A DNA stretch of 64,000 nt from an uncultured Collinsella sp. (GTDB lineage Bacteria > Actinomycetota > Coriobacteriia > Coriobacteriales > Coriobacteriaceae). Where the stretch lies: NCBI GenBank assembly GCA_900541065.1, contig UQIE01000006.1:2711-66710 (forward strand), written 5' to 3'. Under the pieces are notes generated by a model that was not told the DNA's origin, made no database searches, and worked only from the letters and a program-made list of their open reading frames with translations. This document shows, piece after piece, positions 3,189-63,810 of the stretch (its first letter is position 1; each line of letters begins with the position of its first letter). The position numbers were made by a program, and so were the translations under genes.

Positions 3189-3493
3189 GGGAAACCCTTT
3201 CGCGTGGTTGCGGCGCGCGGGTGCGCTCCGCTACGGTACAGTGTTCATCATTGTACCTGTCTGGCGCCAAAAGGGGTGTGCTTACTGCGGCGTTACACGT
3301 CTGCAACATGGATGAAGGTTCGATGGGGTGCGTGCTCGCTGCGATTGGGCATGTCGCATTGCACAAAGACCGTGAACCTTTTGTGGGACGCGCGGTGCCG
3401 TGGTACCATAGCCGAGTTTGTTGTCTTGGTCGGAAACCAAGACGCCTTATGCGCTGATCGGTAACCAGCGCCTGACTAATAAGGAGTCCTACC

Positions 3494-11332: not shown

Positions 11333-12601
11333 TCAGAGGAGCTTCACGGTTGGGGCCAGGGCGCCGGCAAAGATGTCATCTGCCTTGAAGAGCGTTTTAG
11401 AATCCGGTGCGTTTGCGGCTTTCATTTCGGAGACGATGGTGTCGAATGAGATGGCTCCCAAGGACTGTAAATCGAGGGTCTCGCGAGCGGCATCATCCGA
11501 GCAGATGCTGGAGCTGGATGAGAATTTGGAAAGATGAGCCGTCGCGGCGTCGTAGGACCAGCGCGTAATCCATATTTCTACATAGCGACCGCCGCCAAGG
11601 TTAATGTCCTTTACACACCCGCCGCTGATATCGCCGCCGCCCCATACCTCATGGTCGTATCCGGAAAGACTGCCGATGTATTTGTCGGGATAGGCGGTCG
11701 AGTACAGCCCTATCGAATCCCCGTCGACCTTCGCCGTGACCCTGCCGTCCCAGTACTCGGGCAGGTCGACGCTGAAGGTCTGGGCCTCGATGTGGCGTGC
11801 GGCGGCTTTGCGCTGTTCCTCGGCCTGGCGCGCCGCTTCCTCTTCGGCGGCTTTCTTGGCCGCGACGGCGGTGTCGCGGCGGTTCGTTGCGGCGTGTTGC
11901 AGCGCATCGACGTTGGGCGCGTCCTTGCCCTTGTATGCCATGGCGAGTGTCACGGCGTTGTTGATCTCGTCGTCAGTCACGTCGACAGCATCGATGGGCG
12001 TAAAGTCCAAAACCGAATCCTGCTCGGCGAGTTCTGCCAAGTTGATCTTCTCGCCCTTGGCAAAAGCGTCGTCGAGCGTGAGCTCGGCCTTTGTGCAAGG
12101 CACCTGGTAGATAGTGCCCTCGGCGGCGATGGGGGAGCCTGCCGCCTTGAGCGTGTACTTGCCCTGGATAAGCTTGATGCCCGAGCCGTCAGAAGCGACA
12201 TATTCGACCTTGTCGACCTTCTTTCCGTCGACCGTCTTGCCCTTTACGCGCACCGGCACACGAGAAGCGCCGTTATCGGTGTCCCAGCCTTCAGCCTTTA
12301 CGCTCACCACGAGCGCATGCTTGGAATGAGCCGACTCATACTGCTCCTGCTCCTGAACATGCTGCTGATACAGGTGATACGCCAGCCCACCGCCCCCGCC
12401 AACAACAAGTATCGCCGCGCAGACGATAGCGATTACGACGCCTTTCTTGGGCTTCTTGCTGGGGGCGGGCGAACCCACAGGTGCCGGCACAACCGCGGAC
12501 TCGGCTACGGGCATAGCCTGTGTCCCGTCAAGCGCGGCCCCACATCCCACGCAAAACCGAGCCTCATCAGCAAGTTCAGCACCACAATACGGACAAACCA
12601 T
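11333..12601 (-). CDS. hypothetical membrane-anchored protein with an N-terminal zinc ribbon
   Basis: Start MVCPYCGAEL...CVGCGA (two CxxC pairs), a single TM helix, then an extracytoplasmic domain of about 300 aa with no recognisable family. Confidence 0.6.
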   Translation of the reverse strand: MVCPYCGAELADEARFCVGCGAALDGTQAMPVAESAVVPAPVGSPAPSKKPKKGVVIAIVCAAILVVGGGGGLAYHLYQQHVQEQEQYESAHSKHALVVSVKAEGWDTDNGASRVPVRVKGKTVDGKKVDKVEYVASDGSGIKLIQGKYTLKAAGSPIAAEGTIYQVPCTKAELTLDDAFAKGEKINLAELAEQDSVLDFTPIDAVDVTDDEINNAVTLAMAYKGKDAPNVDALQHAATNRRDTAVAAKKAAEEEAARQAEEQRKAAARHIEAQTFSVDLPEYWDGRVTAKVDGDSIGLYSTAYPDKYIGSLSGYDHEVWGGGDISGGCVKDINLGGGRYVEIWITRWSYDAATAHLSKFSSSSSICSDDAARETLDLQSLGAISFDTIVSEMKAANAPDSKTLFKADDIFAGALAPTVKLL

Positions 12602-12691
12602 ACCAACCTCCAGCAAGCCTAGAGCTACCCATCTAGCCCAACTGTAAAGCGAAAACCCCACCCCAAGTTGCGCAACAATGAGCCCCAATAT

Positions 12692-12760
12692 AAGTTGCGG
12701 TGAAATAGGGACTGATTAGGGCTTTTAACTGCTAAAACAGTCCCTATTTCACCGCAACTT
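12692..12760. repeat. Family A palindromic repeat (REP-like), copy A1
   Basis: AAGTTGCGGTGAAATAGGGACTG-N23-CAGTCCCTATTTCACCGCAACTT; 23-bp perfect inverted arms. Confidence 0.85.
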
Positions 12761-12792
12761 CTAAAGAGGCCCCTTAGTAGCCGCAGGCCAGG

Positions 12793-12901
12793 CACAGGGT
12801 TACCTCCCAAATCTTTCCGCAGGACGGAGGAGCCCCCGCAGCGCGAAGCGCGCAGCGGGGGCTCCGACATGTCCGAGGACGATTTGGGAGGTAACCCTGT
12901 G
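12793..12901. promoter_or_regulatory. 109-bp nested perfect hairpin in the divergent leader upstream of ftsE
   Basis: Outer arms CACAGGGTTACCTCCCAAATC / GATTTGGGAGGTAACCCTGTG (21 bp), inner arms GGAGCCCCCGC / GCGGGGGCTCC, with a GCGCGAAGCGCGC centre. Confidence 0.5.
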
Positions 12902-13012
12902 CCCGGCCGGACAGATCCCAAAGCCCGCCATGCTTCTTATGTGCAGCAAAGGCAATGCTGCTAAAATACAAAGCGCTCATGTAGTTTAAACGCACGACGA
13001 TAAGGAGCACCA

Positions 13013-14233
13013 GTGGGTAACCACTTCCGTACCTCCGGTGCGGGCGATGATGCCCCCAAGACGCAGGCAGGCGTCCAGGGCAGTCGTTTCGCCACTCCGG
13101 ATTCAGAGGGCCAGCCTGTTGCTCAGGCCCCCGCTCAGCCGGCAGATCAGGCACAGCCGGCATCCGATCCCTTTGCCTACAATCCAACCAGCGATGTCGC
13201 GCTTTCCGGCACGGCGGGTTTTGAGCCCGTTCAGGTCGTGACCGCTCGCGTGGAGCAGCCTCAGGCTGGTGCCGCCACGCCGCAGCCTACCATGGCCGGC
13301 ATTCCCGACCCCTTGGCCCCTGCGACGCCGGCTCCTCAGCCTGCGCAGTCCGGTCTCTTTGCCGCTATTCCCGACCCCACGCAGCCTGCTGCCCCGGTGG
13401 TCGAGAGCGATCAGGCAGCCGAGGTCGCAAGCCTCGATAACGCGCTCAACAACCCCGATTTTACGTCGGTGTTTGCGCCCATCGATCCGCAGGCCAGCCG
13501 CAAGAAGATGGCCAAGCAGGCCGGTGTCGAGCCCGTCATCCTTATGGAGCATGTCACCAAGATCTATCCGGCGCAGCCCAACAAGCCTGCACTCGACGAC
13601 ATCAACATCGAGATCTATCCGGGTGAGTTCGTCTTCTTGGTCGGTCACTCCGGCTCGGGTAAGACCACGCTGCTGTCGACGCTCAACCGCGACGTCAAGC
13701 CGACGAGCGGCCGCATCTTGGTTGCCGGTCAGGACCTCATGAAGATCAAGAACCGCAAGGTTCCGTTCCTGCGCCGCCAGATTGGCGCCGTGTTCCAGGA
13801 CTTTAAGCTTCTGCCGCAAAAAACCGCCTACGAAAACGTGGCGTTTGCCCTGCAGTGCATCGGCAAGCCCAAGGGCGTCATTCGCAGCCAGGTGCCCGAG
13901 GCGCTGCGTCTGGTCGGCCTGGCCGATCAGATGGACTCGCTGCCCGACCAGCTTTCCGGTGGCGAGCAGCAGCGCGTTGCCGTCGCCCGCGCTATGGTCA
14001 ACCGTCCGCCGCTGCTGATCTGCGACGAGCCCACGGGTAACCTCGACCCGGCGATCTCGCTGGGCATCATGAAGCTGCTCGAGCGTATTAACCGCACCGG
14101 CACCACCGTGATCGTCGCCACGCACGACCGCGAGATGGTCGATAGCATGCACCGTCGCGTGATCGCCCTCGAGGGCGGCCACGTTATCCGCGACCAGGAG
14201 AGGGGAGGTTACGGCAACTATGGCACCAACTAA
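13013..14233 (+). CDS. ftsE: cell-division ABC transporter ATP-binding protein FtsE with a roughly 175-aa Pro/Ala/Gln-rich N-terminal extension
   Basis: GTG start with an AAGGAG RBS; C-terminal 230 aa have Walker A GHSGSGKTT, signature LSGGEQQRV and Walker B LLICDEP. Confidence 0.88.
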   Translation: MGNHFRTSGAGDDAPKTQAGVQGSRFATPDSEGQPVAQAPAQPADQAQPASDPFAYNPTSDVALSGTAGFEPVQVVTARVEQPQAGAATPQPTMAGIPDPLAPATPAPQPAQSGLFAAIPDPTQPAAPVVESDQAAEVASLDNALNNPDFTSVFAPIDPQASRKKMAKQAGVEPVILMEHVTKIYPAQPNKPALDDINIEIYPGEFVFLVGHSGSGKTTLLSTLNRDVKPTSGRILVAGQDLMKIKNRKVPFLRRQIGAVFQDFKLLPQKTAYENVAFALQCIGKPKGVIRSQVPEALRLVGLADQMDSLPDQLSGGEQQRVAVARAMVNRPPLLICDEPTGNLDPAISLGIMKLLERINRTGTTVIVATHDREMVDSMHRRVIALEGGHVIRDQERGGYGNYGTN

Positions 14234-15163: not shown

Positions 15164-15201
15164 CAACGGGTCGTCTCTTTTGGGGGCGGCCCGTTTTTTT
15201 T
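15164..15201 (+). terminator. candidate intrinsic terminator after ftsX
   Basis: AACGGG...CCCGTT stem followed by a T8 run. Confidence 0.5.
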
Positions 15202-15285
15202 GATCCCTAGGGGACGGCAGGATTGCGGATCATCGTGGCGCTGGTCTATCTATGTGACCCGCAATCCTGCCGTCCCCTAGGGATC
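15202..15285. repeat. 27-bp perfect inverted repeat with a roughly 29-nt loop
   Basis: GATCCCTAGGGGACGGCAGGATTGCGG...CCGCAATCCTGCCGTCCCCTAGGGATC; lies between ftsX and rnr. Confidence 0.8.
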
Positions 15286-15336
15286 ATTTGGGTAGACTCT
15301 TGGGGTGTAAACGGCCATCGATAGTAAGGAGGCGCC

Positions 15337-17587: not shown

Positions 17588-17639
17588 GGTAAAACCTACC
17601 AAAATAAACCTGTCCCTTTTTGGCAGGTTTACAAGAAAG
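17588..17639. repeat. Family E repeat copy 2, ending about 11 bp upstream of the recombinase start
   Basis: 43/44-bp match to 4089-4140. Confidence 0.7.
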
Positions 17640-17649
17640 CGGGGATGAG

Positions 17650-18255
17650 ATGGCGACGGTGTACGGTTATGCGCGGGTGAGTTCGCGCGATCAAAATCTT
17701 AATCGGCAGCTGGATGCGCTGGGCGCCTATGGTGTGGGCTCGGCGAATATTTATGCCGACCATGCGAGCGGCAAGGACTTCGATCGGCCGCATTATCGCG
17801 AGCTGCTACACGTCCTGGGAGACGGGGACGTGCTGGTGGTGCTTTCTATCGACCGACTTGGCCGTAATTACTCCGAGATTCTTGAGGAATGGCGACGCAT
17901 TACCAAGGAGCTCGGGGTTGCCATTGTGGTGTTGGACATGCCATTGCTTGACACGCGCGCCAGGGCCAGCGGCGCGCCGGATGTGACCAACGCCCTGATT
18001 GCCGATATTGTGCTGCAACTGCTGAGCTACGTGGCGCAGGTGGAGCGCGAGAATATCCATCGGCGCCAGGCGGAGGGAATTGCAGCGGCGCGGGCGCGAG
18101 GGGTCCGTTTCGGTCGACCTCGCAAGCCGTGCCCTCCTCAGTTTGAGCTGGTGCGCGATAGCTATGAGGCGGGCGATATTACCCGCAGCCAGGCAGCAAA
18201 GTGCCTGGGCGTGTGCGTGGGGACGTTCGATCGCTGGATGCGCGAGGCGGGGTAG
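17650..18255 (+). CDS. serine site-specific recombinase, resolvase/invertase family (Hin/Gin/Tn3-resolvase-like), about 200 aa
   Basis: N-terminal YGYARVSSRDQN catalytic-serine motif; C-terminal HTH (ITRSQAAKCLGVCVGTFDRWMRE). Confidence 0.88.
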   Translation: MATVYGYARVSSRDQNLNRQLDALGAYGVGSANIYADHASGKDFDRPHYRELLHVLGDGDVLVVLSIDRLGRNYSEILEEWRRITKELGVAIVVLDMPLLDTRARASGAPDVTNALIADIVLQLLSYVAQVERENIHRRQAEGIAAARARGVRFGRPRKPCPPQFELVRDSYEAGDITRSQAAKCLGVCVGTFDRWMREAG

Positions 18256-20308: not shown

Positions 20309-20382
20309 TGGGATGTCGTCTAATGGCAGGACAGCGGATTCTGGTTCCGTCAATGGGGGTTCGACTCCCTCCATCCCAGCCA
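20309..20382 (+). tRNA. tRNA-Gln (anticodon CTG)
   Basis: Cloverleaf: acceptor TGGGATG/CATCCCA, anticodon stem GCGGA/TCCGT with loop TTCTGGT, T-arm GGGGGTTCGACTCCCTC, discriminator G, encoded CCA. Confidence 0.85.
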
Positions 20383-20399
20383 TTGCATTTGCTACATAT

Positions 20400-20473
20400 G
20401 GCCCGTTCGTCTAGCGGTTTAGGACGCCGCCCTCTCAAGGCGGAGATCACCAGTTCGAATCTGGTACGGGCTA
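20400..20473 (+). tRNA. tRNA-Glu (anticodon CTC)
   Basis: Acceptor GGCCCGT/ACGGGCT, anticodon stem CCGCC/GGCGG with loop CTCTCAA, T-loop TTCGAAT; 17 nt downstream of tRNA-Gln. Confidence 0.85.
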
Positions 20474-21960: not shown

Positions 21961-22028
21961 AAGTTGCGGTGGAATAGTTCCTGTTTGAGGCCAAATAGCC
22001 GACAAGCAGGAACTATTTCACCGCAATT
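21961..22028. repeat. Family A palindromic repeat, copy A2 (arm variant GTTCCTG/CAGGAAC)
   Basis: AAGTTGCGGTGGAATAGTTCCTG...CAGGAACTATTTCACCGCAATTT. Confidence 0.85.
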
Positions 22029-22158
22029 TGGTGGAGGGACTTGGCTGACCTGCAATCTTGGCACATATGTGTATGGGGCGGCGTCCGTTATGGGCGCCGC
22101 CTTTTTTGTGGGTACATACATCCATGAGGTTCCAACCCAGGTTAGGGGAGTGATCGTT

Positions 22159-22895: not shown

Positions 22896-22936
22896 CTCGC
22901 AGGCACACGGCGAAAGCCGAACATAGCTCTGTCCAA

Positions 22937-22983
22937 GGGCCCCGGTCGGTCATCCCGGCCGGGGCCCTTTTCTTCCGTCCCCA
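22937..22983 (+). terminator. intrinsic terminator after rubredoxin
   Basis: GGGCCCCGG...CCGGGGCCC stem followed by TTTTCTT. Confidence 0.7.
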
Positions 22984-23039
22984 AGGGATCACGGCTGCTG
23001 TTAGCCGATCCTGTCTGTCGTGAGTCCGGCCGACCGTTT

Positions 23040-23335
23040 GTCTCAATCTGTAACATCTGGCGGCTCAAAACGGGTCTATCTGTTACAGATCGAGACAAAA
23101 GGTTGGAGCTGAAGAAATGTCTCGATCTGTAACATCTAGAAGCGGAAATCGGGTCCACTTGTTACAGATCGAGACAAACCAAAACCATCATTCTCAAAAT
23201 CTCAATCTGTAACATCTGACGGTAAAAACGGGGTCTACGTGTTACAGATTGAGACAAACGGAGCTGTCCCTCGGAATGATCTCGATCTGTAACATCTAGA
23301 CATCAAAAGCGGGTCTAGATGTTACAGATCGAGAC
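23040..23335. repeat. Family D hairpin-repeat array D1: 4 units of 57 bp (16-bp perfect inverted arms GTCTCGATCTGTAACA / TGTTACAGATCGAGAC around a 25-bp core) with 22-24-bp spacers
   Basis: Units at 23040-23096, 23119-23175, 23199-23255 and 23279-23335; not CRISPR (no cas genes, cores and spacers are semi-conserved). Confidence 0.9.
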
Positions 23336-23362
23336 GTTTGCCTAGGTGGACCCCCCGTTCCA

Positions 23363-24619: not shown

Positions 24620-24741
24620 GGTGAGCTCCTGCGTGCCGTTTGTTTGACGCCGCAAAGGATACCCGTTTTAGGCTCAAAAGTTAACCAAGACTAACAAAAT
24701 TGTTGTATTTGAATAGGATGGTGAAAGGGGATTGCTGAAAT

Positions 24742-31176: not shown

Positions 31177-31214
31177 AAGAACGTCCCCAATGACTAGTCA
31201 TTGGGGACGTTCTT
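31177..31214. repeat. Family C: perfect 38-bp palindrome AAGAACGTCCCCAATGACTAGTCATTGGGGACGTTCTT followed by a T-run; likely bidirectional terminator for gltD
   Basis: Related GTCCCC-containing units at 360-480, 31215-31250, 45640-45690 and 57095-57150. Confidence 0.8.
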
Positions 31215-32240: not shown

Positions 32241-32280
32241 GGGACGGGCGGTTGTCGCCTGCCTTGCCTTCCGCCTTTAT

Positions 32281-32418
32281 GTCTCGATCTGTAACGTTTA
32301 GAGGCCGTTTGGGGCCGTAACTGTTACAGATTGAGACAAAGAGGTGCAATGCTGCACGAATGTCTCGATTTGTAACGTTTGGCGGTCAAAAATCGGTCTT
32401 CCTGTTACAGATCAAGAC
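32281..32418. repeat. Family D hairpin-repeat array D3 (2 units, cores in opposite orientation)
   Basis: Units at 32281-32337 and 32362-32418; arms GTCTCGATCTGTAACG / TGTTACAGATTGAGAC. Confidence 0.9.
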
Positions 32419-32444
32419 GTTTGCCGACGGCGGCAACGGTGACA

Positions 32445-33515: not shown

Positions 33516-33557
33516 GGGGTGCGGCTGACGCGGGTGTGGTTGTTCCTACCGAGTTTG

Positions 33558-33774
33558 TCTCGATCTGTAACAACAAGGGGCCGTTTGGCCTCGTAACTGT
33601 TACAGATCGAGACAGAAGGTTGGCTGCCGCTAAAAGATCTCAATCTGTAACATCTAGAGGCCGAAAACCTGTCTAACTGTTACAGATCGAGACAAAGGTT
33701 GGACGAGGTGCCGAAAGATCTTGTTCTGTAACATTTGGCTGCTAAAACCCGGTCCACCTGTTACAGATTGAGAC
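33558..33774. repeat. Family D hairpin-repeat array D4 (3 units)
   Basis: Units at 33558-33614, 33638-33694 and 33718-33774; spacers contain AAGGTTGG as in D1. Confidence 0.9.
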
Positions 33775-33923
33775 ATTTCCCGGACGTCGCTGGGGTGGGA
33801 CTGCAACGCGTTCCGTTCTCCGTATCTCCTCCTTTCTCCGTTAACCGATATGTCCGCAGCAATCCCGCTGCACTGGGTAATAATGGACAAATGTTCAAGT
33901 TAATCGTGAGGGAGGAGCTCGAT

Positions 33924-35859: not shown

Positions 35860-35905
35860 GCGAATTGCCTTTCGTTCGATATGCTGCACGCCTTTATACC
35901 CCTTT

Positions 35906-35971
35906 TGGTGCATTGGGGACAGGTTAATCTGCACCAAGGTGGTGCAAACGTACCTGTCCCCCCCTGCACCA
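35906..35971. repeat. Family B MITE-like element, complete minimal copy (left end directly abuts right end)
   Basis: TGGTGCATTGGGGACAGGTTAATCTGCACCA-agg-TGGTGCAAACGTACCTGTCCCCCCCTGCACCA; the ends are inverted repeats of each other. Confidence 0.75.
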
Positions 35972-35972
35972 A

Positions 35973-36245
35973 TTACTTGGCGAGCTTGTCGACGACGCGT
36001 TCGATCTCGGCGAGCTTGGCGGCTTTGAGCTCCTCGTCGCCCGATTCGATGGCCGAGGCGACGCAGCCCTCGATGTGTGCCTTCAACACATCGGCGTTGA
36101 TGCGGGCGATGAGCGCCTGCGTGGCCATGAGCTGCGTGGAGACGTCGATGCAGTAACGGTCCTCCTCCACCATCCGCAGGATGCCGTCGATTTGCCCGCG
36201 TGCCGTCTTGAGCATGCGGGTCACCGATTTATGGTCTGCCATCAT
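35973..36245 (-). CDS. csoR: CsoR/RcnR-family metal-sensing transcriptional repressor
   Basis: 90 aa; conserved Cys and His in the C-x-H-x-C-type arrangement (RYCIDV...HIEGC). Confidence 0.8.
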   Translation of the reverse strand: MMADHKSVTRMLKTARGQIDGILRMVEEDRYCIDVSTQLMATQALIARINADVLKAHIEGCVASAIESGDEELKAAKLAEIERVVDKLAK

Positions 36246-36290
36246 GGCGAGTCCTCGTTTCTGGTCAATCCTTCAAATGCCTCACCCTCA

Positions 36291-36358
36291 GTTGCGGTGA
36301 AATAGTTCCTGATTGAAGGCTTAAAGCGTTTAAACCGGAACTATTTCACCGCAACTTC
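36291..36358. repeat. Family A palindromic repeat, copy A3, inside the cop operon between copZ and csoR
   Basis: AGTTGCGGTGAAATAGTTCCTG...CCGGAACTATTTCACCGCAACTT. Confidence 0.85.
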
Positions 36359-36400: not shown

Positions 36401-36622
36401 CTACGCGGCGGTCACGGACAGGGCGTGGAACTTCTCGCCGGCGCCCTCGACGGCGGCGGCGAGCTGCTCGGCGGTCACGGTGTCGGCGCACTCTACCTGG
36501 ACGGTCTGGGTCTCGTGATCGGCGTCGGCATCGGTCACGCCTGCCACGTTGAGCAGCGCCGTCTCGACAGTGGCGTCGCAGTGGCCGCACATAAGGCCGG
36601 AAGTCTTGATTGTGTAACGCAT
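36401..36622 (-). CDS. copZ: copper chaperone CopZ (heavy-metal-associated domain)
   Basis: 73 aa; GLMCGHC metal-binding motif. Confidence 0.85.
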   Translation of the reverse strand: MRYTIKTSGLMCGHCDATVETALLNVAGVTDADADHETQTVQVECADTVTAEQLAAAVEGAGEKFHALSVTAA

Positions 36623-39117: not shown

Positions 39118-39270
39118 GGCTTCTCCTTTCTGTGGCGTAGTGTTGGAATTGTTAACCTGCCGATACTATACACCCATACCCCCTGGGGGTGTCCAGTGGA
39201 GATTGAAATGTATGACATTCTGGTATTGGTCGAGGTGATAGCCAGGTCGGCGGACCGTAGCCGGTCTAAT

Positions 39271-39488
39271 GTCTCAATCTGTAACAACTAGACCCGTTTT
39301 TGTCGAGTAACTGTTACAGATCGAGACATTACATCGAGCCACAACTTAACGTCTCAACCTGTAACGCCTAAGGACCGTTTTTCCTGCTAGATGTTACAGA
39401 TCGAGACAAACCGTCCGCGGTCAACTCAAATGTCTTGATTTGTAACATCTAGAGAGGTTTTTGACCCCTTACTGTTACAGATCGAGAC
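39271..39488. repeat. Family D hairpin-repeat array D5 (3 units)
   Basis: Units at 39271-39327, 39351-39407 and 39432-39488. Confidence 0.9.
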
Positions 39489-39530
39489 AATTGCCGGGGA
39501 GGGGTCCCGTCACGGCAAGACGCCCGCCGC

Positions 39531-45425: not shown

Positions 45426-45491
45426 CATACGCATCGCACGCTAGAGCGAGGCGAACTAAGGGCCCCGAGCAACTACGCTCGGGGCCCTTTT

Positions 45492-45635
45492 TGGTGCAAT
45501 GGGGCCAGGTTAATCTGCATCAACGTCTTGAAGTTGCGGTGGAATACGGACTGTTTTGGCCTTTTGAGCGGCTTTGCAGTCCCTATTTCACCGCAACTCA
45601 TGATTGGTGCAAACAAACCTGACCCCATTGCACCA
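45492..45635. repeat. Family B MITE-like element carrying a nested family A repeat (A4 at 45531-45598)
   Basis: Left end TGGTGCAATGGGGCCAGGTTAATCTGCATCA, right end TGGTGCAAACAAACCTGACCCCATTGCACCA; the family A copy has one arm mismatch. Confidence 0.8.
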
Positions 45636-45881
45636 GAGCAAGGAGTGTCCCCGGGTGCCGGCAGAAAAGGAACGTCCCTAAGTGCCGCCTAAATACCGTT
45701 CATCGGTCATAATGGTTGCTCCGGCTTTGGACTTGGTCTACAATAGCTCCCGTCAAAAGAAATGCGGAAGGTTACCGAGTCCCTCGGACGTGGGCCTAAC
45801 CAAAGTCTTTGAACGGGTGTGTCTCTATGGATGCATTCGCTTGATTTTGGTTGGGCTATATTTATGAAGGGACATGCCACC

Positions 45882-50450: not shown

Positions 50451-50625
50451 CGCGTTTTATCAAATATGGCATTTATCTGCGGTAATGTTCTATTTCACCG
50501 CCGAGGGTGACATTTCATACCGCCTGCCGAACTGCGTGGAGGCCTAACAACTTTATAGGTCAGTGTTGTGCGTGTAGCAACTTCGCCCGGCCTCGCCTCC
50601 GGGCTGCCGCATGAGAGGGGATCTT

Positions 50626-56916: not shown

Positions 56917-57138
56917 ATGGCAGAACACATGACCCCCATAGTCGCGAAGGTCTTGCCCGAGGAGAAGGCGGCCTTCGCGGCGGCAACCCAGCTCGTGGGC
57001 ACCACGCCGTCCAACGCCATCCGCATGTTTATCGCCGCGTTCAATCGCTGCGGCACCTTCCCGTTTGACATCTCGCCCAACGGGGCCTTTGGCAAAGAGT
57101 GTCCCCAACAGCTAGTCGTTGAAGAACGTCCCCAATGA
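56917..57138 (+). CDS. RelB/DinJ-family antitoxin-like small protein (no cognate toxin adjacent); 3' end runs into family C repeats
   Basis: MAEHMTPIVAKVLPEEKAAFAAATQLVGTTPSNAIRMFIAAFNRCGTFPFD resembles a DinJ ribbon-helix-helix antitoxin. Confidence 0.55.
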   Translation: MAEHMTPIVAKVLPEEKAAFAAATQLVGTTPSNAIRMFIAAFNRCGTFPFDISPNGAFGKECPQQLVVEERPQ

Positions 57139-63674: not shown

Positions 63675-63726
63675 CGATGCAGCGGCCTCGGCTGATACAG
63701 TAGTACCGACTGAGGCCGTCCTCTCT

Positions 63727-63795
63727 AAGTTGCGGTGAAATAGGGACTGTTTGGCGGTTTTAAACGCTCAAACAGTCCCTATTTCACCGCAATTT
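63727..63795. repeat. Family A palindromic repeat, copy A5, between convergent genes
   Basis: AAGTTGCGGTGAAATAGGGACTG...CAGTCCCTATTTCACCGCAATTT. Confidence 0.85.
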
Positions 63796-63810
63796 ATGAA
63801 GGGGATGGGG

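Follow-up and report, generated by a model that had tools for sequence, protein, structure and literature searches.

The repetitive extragenic palindromic (REP) sequences of Escherichia coli and Salmonella, along with the bacterial interspersed mosaic elements (BIMEs), bind gyrase, integration host factor (IHF), and DNA polymerase I as DNA, promote rearrangements, and have side effects on mRNA stability. Here, we analyze a family of dispersed palindromes, denoted family A, of which five copies (A1 to A5) are present in a 64,000-nucleotide (nt) stretch of DNA from an uncultured Collinsella sp. (contig UQIE01000006.1; this whole stretch is hereafter the window). Like REP and BIME, the members of family A are short, imperfect intergenic palindromes that are overrepresented at gene 3' ends and in convergent gaps, are conserved in sequence, and fall into few subtypes. 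However, each of them is one long hairpin with a fixed 65-nt core, whereas REPs are 35-nt units in mosaics; furthermore, family A has no GTAG head and no sequence similarity to REP, its host belongs to the Coriobacteriia, and a REP-associated tyrosine transposase (RAYT) was not found in the Collinsella sequences searched. Family A is, with practical certainty, a real family of dispersed palindromes. As the sequence-only reading of the window had proposed, it very probably belongs to the REP-like class, being composed of dispersed extragenic palindromes at tens to hundreds of copies per genome. The overall explanation that we favor, at somewhat better than even chances, is that these REP-like palindromes act at the level of DNA, through a factor that would recognize their arms.

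Other described systems are similar to family A in some respects. The REPIN-RAYT systems of Pseudomonas and other Proteobacteria (REPINs being paired, inverted REP sequences) share with it two inverted arms, a hairpin of ~60 to 110 nt, compensated stem changes, and long vertical persistence. REPIN populations, however, consist of clusters of near-identical copies centered on a master sequence, and they flank a RAYT gene that is present in a single copy, whereas the interiors of family A copies are nearly saturated with differences (54% identity). Clusters of near-identical copies, with a master sequence and a cloud of mutants, are absent from family A, in which only two neighboring pairs of nonorthologous copies share an interior. 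The Correia elements, or Neisseria miniature insertion sequences (NEMIS), and the enterobacterial repetitive intergenic consensus (ERIC) sequences, or intergenic repeat units (IRU), also are small palindromes that form long RNA hairpins, show presence/absence polymorphism, and serve as sites of rearrangement; often, they are cotranscribed with neighboring genes. In contrast to family A, in which none of these features was seen, Correia elements are 100 to 155 bp long, with 26-bp terminal inverted repeats (TIRs), TA target duplication, IHF sites, and promoters.

Searches within the window delineate the family sharply. A 23-nt arm, with up to 3 mismatches, has 6 matches against 0.00 expected, and a 14-nt arm, with up to 2 mismatches, has 10 matches, namely, both arms of the five copies, against 0.24 expected. 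A covariance model that was built on 125 members and run across the entire window with the filters off returned the same five sites only (Table 1), with scores of 68 to 85 bits that are equal on either strand; the next-best match, at 21 bits, is a palindrome unrelated to family A. Thus, all five copies that had been recognized from the letters stand, by arm searches and covariance model alike. Their alignment spans 69 nt, and the interiors differ in all five. The loop, which had been described as 22 to 26 nt long, is 23 nt in every one of them. Each copy is predicted to fold into a long hairpin, with single-strand folding energies of -47 to -65 kcal/mol for RNA (z scores of -8 to -15) and -21 to -35 kcal/mol for DNA. 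According to an inverted-repeat search, the palindrome reaches nearly to the center in some copies (the arms of A5 are 35 nt long and 1 nt apart, and those of A3 are 33 nt long). In the opposite direction, it runs past the ends originally assigned, into weakly conserved C-rich and G-rich flanks.

To establish the spread of the family, one genome per prokaryotic species was scanned with a two-arm pattern that required exact arms and accepted cores of 53 to 83 nt. At least 120 stretches of DNA containing family A were recovered; among the matches listed, these come from Collinsella or unclassified Coriobacteriaceae, in addition to a few records of “uncultured bacterium” and one contig labeled Alloprevotella sp. 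(CAVGCW010000044.1, L083). The latter is probably misbinned because its family A copy and flanks are near-identical to those of two Collinsella contigs (L082 and L064). In a plasmid collection of 72,556 records, a Collinsella record alone matches, in 24 places over 900 kb. Family A was thus found in this analysis in Collinsella only. The 5 copies in the 64-kb window and the 24 places in the 900-kb record suggest ~60 to 160 copies per 2.4-Mb genome. Two IMG/VR contigs classed as viral also contain family A, with three copies in 3 stretches (L127 to L129); these contigs may be Collinsella prophages or misclassified pieces of chromosome.

When up to 2 mismatches per arm were allowed, 147 complete copies were identified across at least 120 Collinsella loci or genomes; in 141 of these copies (96%), GTTGC and GCAAC delimit a core of exactly 65 nt. 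The core is bordered by a weaker palindrome in the flanks, with the consensus CCCCtcATAA / core / TTATgaGGGG. The filled and empty alleles of the copZ-csoR site show a net difference of 87 nt, and because of this difference and the palindromic flanks, the full unit is estimated at ~87 nt; other insertion or deletion differences that involve family A are 105 to 130 nt long. There are almost no copies within genes. Searches of the literature on Collinsella repeats and intergenic elements returned no description of family A, and in a human-microbiome structured-RNA catalogue that lists Collinsella motifs, the arm sequence is absent from the 200 supplementary files examined out of 408. An Rfam scan of the window at gathering thresholds detected only two tRNAs and one L31 leader, and a permissive scan of A1 yielded only generic microRNA-hairpin matches, far below threshold.

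The arms of family A contrast with its interior. The outer arms, TTGCGGTG-R-AATA, are ~99% conserved among unrelated loci, with 13 fixed bases per arm; columns 5 to 11 and 13 to 16, along with the columns with which they pair, show little or no variation. Conversely, the 37-nt interior is only ~54% identical among nonorthologous copies. Because the genome scan demanded exact arms, arm conservation was remeasured on independent copies, that is, 21 copies that lie in the window or at loci fetched through CopZ, SmpB, or a BLAST hit; in this unbiased sample, 6 of 546 arm positions depart from the consensus. Maintenance of the arm sequence is solidly supported by this contrast between paralogues. 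The consensus foot of the hairpin is ...ATAAGTTGCGG, and a GTAG-type tetranucleotide is absent from the foot and flank profile of the consensus.

The arms had also been claimed to covary, and they do, within a narrow segment of the stem. The inner-stem pairs 17 to 20/50 to 53 occur in three linked states, V1 (GTTCC/GGAAC), V2 (GGGAC/GTCCC), and V3 (CGGAC/GTCCG). The original example of compensation is correct: in A2 and A3, the left arm has GTTCC(T/G)G, and the right arm has the matching C(A/C)GGAAC. Intermediates between V2 and V3 exist, with C-C or G-G at pair 17/53, as do minor compensated variants, namely, CGGTC/GACCG and a T-A pair at 13/57 in L101. Only 2 of 141 stems are V1 × V2 hybrids. 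Among 125 distinct sequences, 88.9% of the pair cells are paired, and the stem has no conserved bulges. The covariation score is 0.197, compared to 0.107 in shuffles (none of 500 reached the observed value) and at most 0.126 with slid partners. Double-sided changes are concentrated in pairs 17 to 20, with 52 to 56 at each of pairs 18 to 20. Pair 12/58 behaves differently: it has a purine on the left and a pyrimidine on the right in the proportions that independence predicts (AT, 45; GT, 37; AC, 22; GC, 21). Uncorrelated changes of this kind had been named in advance as evidence against selection on structure; they occur at this pair, unlike at pairs 17 to 20/50 to 53. There is no copy-specific pairing in the 23-nt center, where the energy with a copy's own right half does not differ from that with a swapped one (-14.34 versus -14.24 kcal/mol; P = 0.32), nor in the flanks (-14.0 kcal/mol with the own partner versus -13.8 kcal/mol with a swapped one). 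Pairing in the center and the flanks is a property of the family consensus, not of individual compensation. Thus, arm covariation is real but narrow.

Comparison of orthologous sites indicates how the inner-stem states change. In 119 pairs of orthologous copies, selected for at least 75% identity of the adjacent flanks, the identity of the interiors has two modes: 73 pairs reach 90% or more, and 28 pairs from six loci stay below 70%, the level of unrelated family A copies. In these 28 pairs, the flanks are 85 to 97% identical and the inner-stem state is usually switched. At the smpB site in 12 strains, two classes of interior plus right flank and two classes of left flank are found in all four combinations; the A2 site itself is filled in 10 further strains, with two allele classes. 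A donor can be identified in one case. In three strains (L035, L072, and L063), the interior at site 2 is of the CGGTC type, and a decaying copy located 1.1 kb from it has a V1 interior; in two others (L056 and L110), the interior of the latter copy is found at site 2, between unchanged flanks. The site 2 interior of L056 and L110 is demonstrably the product of conversion from this neighboring copy. The joint change of the arms therefore largely reflects inheritance or conversion of the whole interior as a block, with the outer arms as homology. Because the states are inherited or transferred as one 37-nt block, the covariation does not document a long series of separate compensatory changes, and this part of the original claim is not supported as stated. 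A true pairing requirement is still needed for the origin of the three or four complementary states, and the isolated T-A pair at 13/57 also fits such a requirement.

The genomic positions of family A copies are far from random with respect to gene ends, as had been anticipated. Among 109 classifiable copies, 44 (40%) are in convergent gaps, 62 (57%) are in tandem gaps, and 3 (3%) are in divergent gaps, compared to 121 (15%), 570 (72%), and 104 (13%), respectively, for all intergenic gaps. Family A copies favor gene 3' ends. In the median, 16 nt separate a copy from the nearer stop codon in convergent gaps and 38 nt separate it from the stop codon in tandem gaps, compared to 140 nt to the next open reading frame (ORF). 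All five copies in the window had been described as lying immediately 3' of stop codons, which is true of four; A1 is in a divergent gap, as is one L052 locus. No T-tract follows the stem in the consensus, and the 3' flank consensus, TTATGAGGGG, has no T-run. Canonical T-tract terminators are located upstream of A4, L101:1305, and a copy after the transketolase genes (E1), and the arms of these copies are intact; a copy downstream of a terminator is probably poorly transcribed. No polarity relative to transcription was found in the end bases, the model scores, or the counts of G-U and A-C mismatches; the latter, read on the sense strand, number 47 and 38, respectively, in 53 distinct copies from tandem contexts, so that there is no RNA-type asymmetry. 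The idea that family A replaces canonical terminators was abandoned: such terminators are found at 11% of the 3' ends with a copy versus 29%, a comparison confounded by the space that the copy occupies and by orthologous replication, and a fairer window gave an unconvincing 16% versus 29%.

In many Collinsella species, family A copies occupy orthologous sites and are mostly passed on by vertical descent, with occasional gain or loss. Filled and empty alleles were identified at five sites: copZ-csoR, A4, L101:1305, the A1 site, and L052:7641. For example, the copZ-csoR site is empty in two genomes (L001 and L005) and contains V1 or V3 interiors in four others (L002 to L004 and L006), and the orthologous site of A1 is empty in L068. 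L001 also lacks a 124-nt block that consists of A4 and the inner part of the family-B repeat around A4. No clear target site duplication is apparent at these five sites, at which divergence has blurred the junctions; one of them shows CCAG microhomology. Truncated, decayed, and collapsed copies also occur.

At four loci, a copy-gene-copy arrangement is present in one genome where others have a single copy. At L078:3185-6169, the copies bracket an archaeo-eukaryotic primase (AEP)-helicase of a TOTE conflict system, a protein of 994 amino acids (aa) encoded with foreign codon usage, whose stop codon is contributed by the AATAG of the element; both copies carry the resident allele, and five genomes have a single copy. 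At the A5 site, L114:1408-2793 has a HipA-like kinase with a helix-turn-helix (HTH) domain between two copies, where the window and L096 have one. At L065:468-1781, an AAA_14/DUF4143 ATPase lies between copies, the extra one of which comes from a different subfamily; again, five genomes have a single copy. Finally, a zinc-ribbon gene is bracketed in L058 and in strain TSDC17.2-1.1, and L061 and L048 have a single copy. The single copy of L061 is an exact hybrid of the two copies of L058: its left flank and left arm come from E1, and everything from the center through the right flank comes from E2. Another hybrid is present in L048, with a crossover point unlike that of L061. These findings demonstrate that copies recombine with each other, removing or bracketing strain-specific genes. 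Because the crossover points differ, ordinary recombination fits better than a fixed site-specific exchange.

The search for a partner of family A yielded no candidate. The presence of a RAYT gene had been suggested as a check; with the limited reach of a single-sequence query, tblastn with E. coli RayT found no match in 1.13 Mb of Collinsella DNA or in the 900-kb Collinsella record, and no Collinsella is among the organism names listed, all but four, for its 32 matches in the plasmid collection. There is no transposase between paired copies, where the genes are housekeeping or accessory ones. Across ~2 Mb of Collinsella DNA, no insertion sequence (IS) with family A terminal repeats was found, and arms that occur singly belong to truncated or decayed copies rather than to IS ends. 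The sole Y1 transposase seen, of the IS200 type and encoded in L140 two genes downstream of the A2 site, was considered as a mobilizer and rejected, since its subterminal hairpins (CCACCC...GGGTGG) bear no relation to the arms and its position is that of a family-C repeat. This element (L140:4531-5234, C. aerofaciens) encodes a 152-aa protein (PF01797), has its own subterminal hairpins, and occupies the rubredoxin-Nramp gap. Readings as attC, parS, or dif-like sites were ruled out by motif order and architecture.

These observations can be put together as follows. The presence of family A copies in intergenic DNA, for the most part at gene 3' ends, is of old date; their outer arms have stayed near-invariant at a fixed spacing, with the interior diverging almost to saturation. 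The inner 4 to 5 bp of the stem may adopt any of three or four sequences as long as the arms match, and the 37-nt interior moves between copies as a block by gene conversion, so that the arms stay matched. On DNA, the arms would be recognized by a putative sequence-specific factor, and extrusion of the element as a hairpin or cruciform would matter. The element would thus act at the level of DNA, in the manner of the E. coli REP and BIME, binding proteins and provoking rearrangements. Effects on transcripts, exerted by an RNA hairpin of 26 to 35 bp in 3' untranslated regions (UTRs) or between cistrons, for example, between copZ and csoR, would be secondary and dependent on the locus. Constraint at the DNA level is favored because the arms are intact beyond terminators and in a divergent gap, the two strands score equally, and both spacing and sequence are fixed. 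Recognition of the arms by a specific factor, taken by itself, has about an even chance of being correct.

The sequence-only reading placed the function of family A in RNA, where the transcribed hairpin would terminate transcription, shield the 3' end of the mRNA, or, in operons, serve as a site of RNase III processing or attenuation. The strong 3'-end bias and short distances from stop codons, the high stability of the RNA hairpins, the scarcity of canonical terminators nearby, and the intercistronic position of A3 all agree with such a role, and A2, which has the smpB stop codon on one side and a terminator on the other, belongs to a 3' UTR. Intrinsic terminators, too, are stable GC-containing hairpins that closely follow a stop codon, and convergent genes sometimes have one in common. 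However, family A has no T-tract, a stem that is 3 to 4 times longer, and a conserved sequence, and canonical terminators cooccur with its copies, several of which lie beyond them; A1 and the L052 locus are in divergent gaps, G-U mismatches do not exceed A-C mismatches, and both strands score equally. Moreover, a structural role in RNA leaves the 99% conservation of the arms and the fixed loop length unexplained, so that we do not favor this reading and regard it as possible but rather unlikely. It is improbable that family A is a selfish miniature inverted-repeat transposable element (MITE), a nonautonomous IS derivative without host function that is moved in trans by a transposase with the arms as TIRs. 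The whole unit is indeed an inverted repeat, presence/absence differences affect at least five loci, variants differ at the same site between strains, A4 is nested in another repeat, and IS3, IS21, IS110, and IS200 elements occur in the species. Yet nonorthologous copies share no interior, apart from two neighboring pairs that conversion explains, and because of this, there is no sign of recent bursts. Orthologous copies persist across many species clusters, no clear target site duplication is visible at the blurred junctions of filled and empty alleles, no transposase lies between or beside paired copies, the ends of the IS200 element that was examined are unlike the arms, and neutral decay would not produce arms that are 99% conserved and interiors that are 54% identical.

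A dimeric or tetrameric protein that reads the arms on duplex DNA as an operator, with no hairpin formed, would account for the fixed spacing despite a variable center, the sequence-specific conservation of the arms, the lack of copy-specific complementarity in the center and flanks, and pair 12/58, which keeps only its purine/pyrimidine class without a pairing constraint. We nevertheless judge this very improbable: at least 4 inner-stem sequences exist, yet the arms are nearly always complementary, as for a stem, although block transfer could mimic this, and the consensus palindromy extends through flanks and center, past a plausible protein footprint. No better odds are given to a cassette recombination site, that is, an arrayless analogue of attC at which a trans-acting recombinase would insert or excise single accessory genes. 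The four copy-gene-copy loci, with the TOTE primase-helicase, the HipA-like kinase, the AAA_14/DUF4143 ATPase, and the zinc-ribbon protein, are consistent with such a site, as is the extra copy in L065 that belongs to another subfamily than the resident one. The likeness to the attC sites of integrons, such as the Vibrio cholerae repeats, consists in conserved ends around a variable center, placement just past stop codons, and bracketing of accessory genes. However, attC sites form arrays beside intI, vary in length, and have extrahelical bases, and their boxes have the order AAC...GTT (R'', RYYYAAC; R', GTTRRRY), whereas family A ends in the reverse order, GTTGCGG...CCGCAAC, has no extrahelical bases, and is dispersed among housekeeping genes, including smpB, mnmA, copZ, and helicase genes, with no integrase nearby. 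Homologous or short-homology recombination between nearby copies accounts for the hybrids, the crossovers of which differ, and the two resident alleles in L078 look more like duplication than exchange. In a related scenario that we also hold to be quite improbable, a dedicated Collinsella protein that acts on the extruded hairpin would insert, excise, or exchange accessory or conflict-system genes at many 3' ends; if true, family A would be a dispersed, arrayless analogue of integron cassettes, and the three inner-stem states would be specificity classes. On those tests of membership that could be run, family A falls outside the attC and intrinsic-terminator classes and probably also outside the REPIN-RAYT and MITE classes.

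Several observations weigh against DNA-level action through an arm-recognizing factor. In one orthologous allele class that is free of search bias, arms and interior are equally conserved (97.6% and 97.0%, respectively), and the case for selection on the arms therefore rests on paralogous copies. A larger set of orthologues gave 98.5% for the arms and 88.8% for the flanks, values that are inflated because the loci were found with the exact-arm pattern; this estimate was dropped in favor of the unbiased sample. Arm conservation could result from biased gene conversion instead of selection. In 43 of 51 locus views, a 120-nt distance around the copy contains no canonical terminator; at such loci, family A may provide the sole 3' hairpin, and a terminator-like role at many of them is conceivable. 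The comparison of G-U with A-C mismatches is a weak test because most mismatches fall at one tolerant pair. Finally, no binding protein, transposase, or recombinase for family A was found.

The coordinates of the window copies and of the adjacent features are given in Table 1.

Table 1. Family A copies in the window, a possible remnant, and neighboring terminators
Feature	Coordinates	Strand	Form	Context
A1	12692..12760		Inner stem V2 (GGGAC/GTCCC); extended palindrome 12677-12775; 84-85 bits	Divergent gap between zinc-ribbon gene 11333-12688 (minus) and ftsE 13013-14233 (plus)
A2	21961..22029		V1 (GTTCC/GGAAC)	Begins 12 nt past smpB stop codon (21949); flavin reductase gene downstream; T-tract terminator afterwards at 22075-22110
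A3	36289..36357		V1	Minus-strand copA-copZ-csoR gene string, in copZ/csoR gap
A4	45531..45599		V3/V2 hybrid (CGGAC/GTCCC), C-C mismatch at pair 17/53	106 nt past DEAD-box helicase stop codon, beyond terminator 45459-45495; nested in family-B repeat
A5	63727..63795		V2; near-perfect palindrome 63726-63796, 35-nt arms	Between convergent M42 peptidase gene (stop codon 63674) and mnmA (minus)
Possible collapsed remnant	50475..50511		Degenerate left arm abutting right arm, apex gone; weak	
Helicase gene terminator (outside element)	45459..45495	+	Hairpin and T-tract; conserved in six strains	Upstream of A4
Terminator downstream of A2 (outside element)	22075..22110	+	Canonical hairpin and T-tract	

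Gene contexts were assigned with a simple codon usage gene caller and Pfam scans. The window, with a G+C content of 56 to 67%, is syntenic with the 900-kb C. aerofaciens record over rpmE, secA, prfB, the transketolase genes, ftsEX, the gene for an RNB-domain ribonuclease, and smpB, and its CopZ is identical to the protein in GCA_010509075.1 (CP048433.1) and in many gut assemblies. By these sequence comparisons, the window DNA is Collinsella aerofaciens chromosome. The 900-kb record (NZ_OY725717.1, L131) is filed as “plasmid 6” of C. aerofaciens TSDC17.2-1.1; evidently, it is a piece of chromosome because rpmE, secA, prfB, ftsEX, and smpB appear in the same order as in the window. It carries IS21 and IS110 insertions.

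As originally described, A3 occupies the gap between two minus-strand genes, csoR (35973-36245) and copZ (36401-36622); copA lies upstream of it. Next to A1, the plus-strand ORF 11534-12622, presumably the one with the stop codon on which the original placement of A1 was based, has no Pfam match, loses on codon score, and is a shadow ORF; A1 is thus in a divergent gap because its true left neighbor is the minus-strand zinc-ribbon gene, the 5' end of which faces A1. A degenerate remnant had been reported near 50455-50490. The covariance model run over the window did not detect it; however, positions 50475-50511 read as a V1 copy with a deleted apex, albeit a weak one, in which ATCTGCGGTAATGTTC is immediately joined to TATTTCACCGC and followed by a right flank similar to that of A3. 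The exact 12-mer CTATTTCACCGC is present in this remnant.

The window contains several other repeats. A second, more abundant one is the 17-mer TGTTACAGATCGAGACA, which forms clustered inverted pairs ~25 nt apart, with 22 matches in the window (23030-23340, 32266-32420, 33554-33779, and 39262-39490, with single matches at 24741 and 42970) and 134 in the other Collinsella loci examined. The rubredoxin-Nramp gap, at ~22930-23360 of the window, contains its largest cluster; in L140, one TGTTACAGATCGAGACA is left beside the IS. Members of a third palindromic family, GGTGCAnnGGGGnCAGGTTAATCTGCACCA...TGGTGCAAACnnACCTGnCCCCnnTGCACC, are located at 35905-35972 and at 45488-45530 plus 45600-45650; the second of these is split by A4, and in L001, A4 and the inner part of this second member are missing together (124 nt). 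A fourth repeat, AAGAACGTCCCC(A), has 11 matches in the window (at 365-459, 18218, 31177-31214, where it forms a perfect 38-nt palindrome, 45668, and 57095-57134) and 80 in other loci. Two further, long palindromes have no copies in the other Collinsella loci examined: one adjoins A1 (12786-12908; 28-nt arms, 96% complementary, 67 nt apart), and the other lies between ftsX and the RNB-domain ribonuclease gene (15201-15286; 32-nt arms, 97% complementary, 22 nt apart). Beside the ribonuclease and VanZ genes, a small serine recombinase (Resolvase plus HTH; 17620-18255) is encoded, which is conserved in place in strain TSDC17.2-1.1. An L31-Coriobacteria ribosomal protein leader (36 bits against a gathering score of 33) precedes rpmE; this leader and two tRNA genes occupy 3451-3486 and 20309-20473.

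One of the most prevalent actinobacteria in the human gut, Collinsella aerofaciens is a “species” split into hundreds of genome clusters. In this group, family A, a conserved repeat that is easy to recognize, marks sites of gene gain and loss, conflict-system genes included, and is useful as a strain-typing marker and for the study of genome plasticity. It also breaks metagenome assemblies, many contigs being short or ending at a copy. A more general caution is that covariation between the arms of palindromic repeats may stem from block inheritance and conversion; on its own, it is no proof of selection on RNA structure. To our knowledge, REP-RAYT systems have not been described in this phylum. 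Near-invariant arms, in contrast to an interior that is free to vary within a fixed length, argue for a putative sequence-specific partner, the identity of which would show whether REP-like systems arose independently outside the Proteobacteria.

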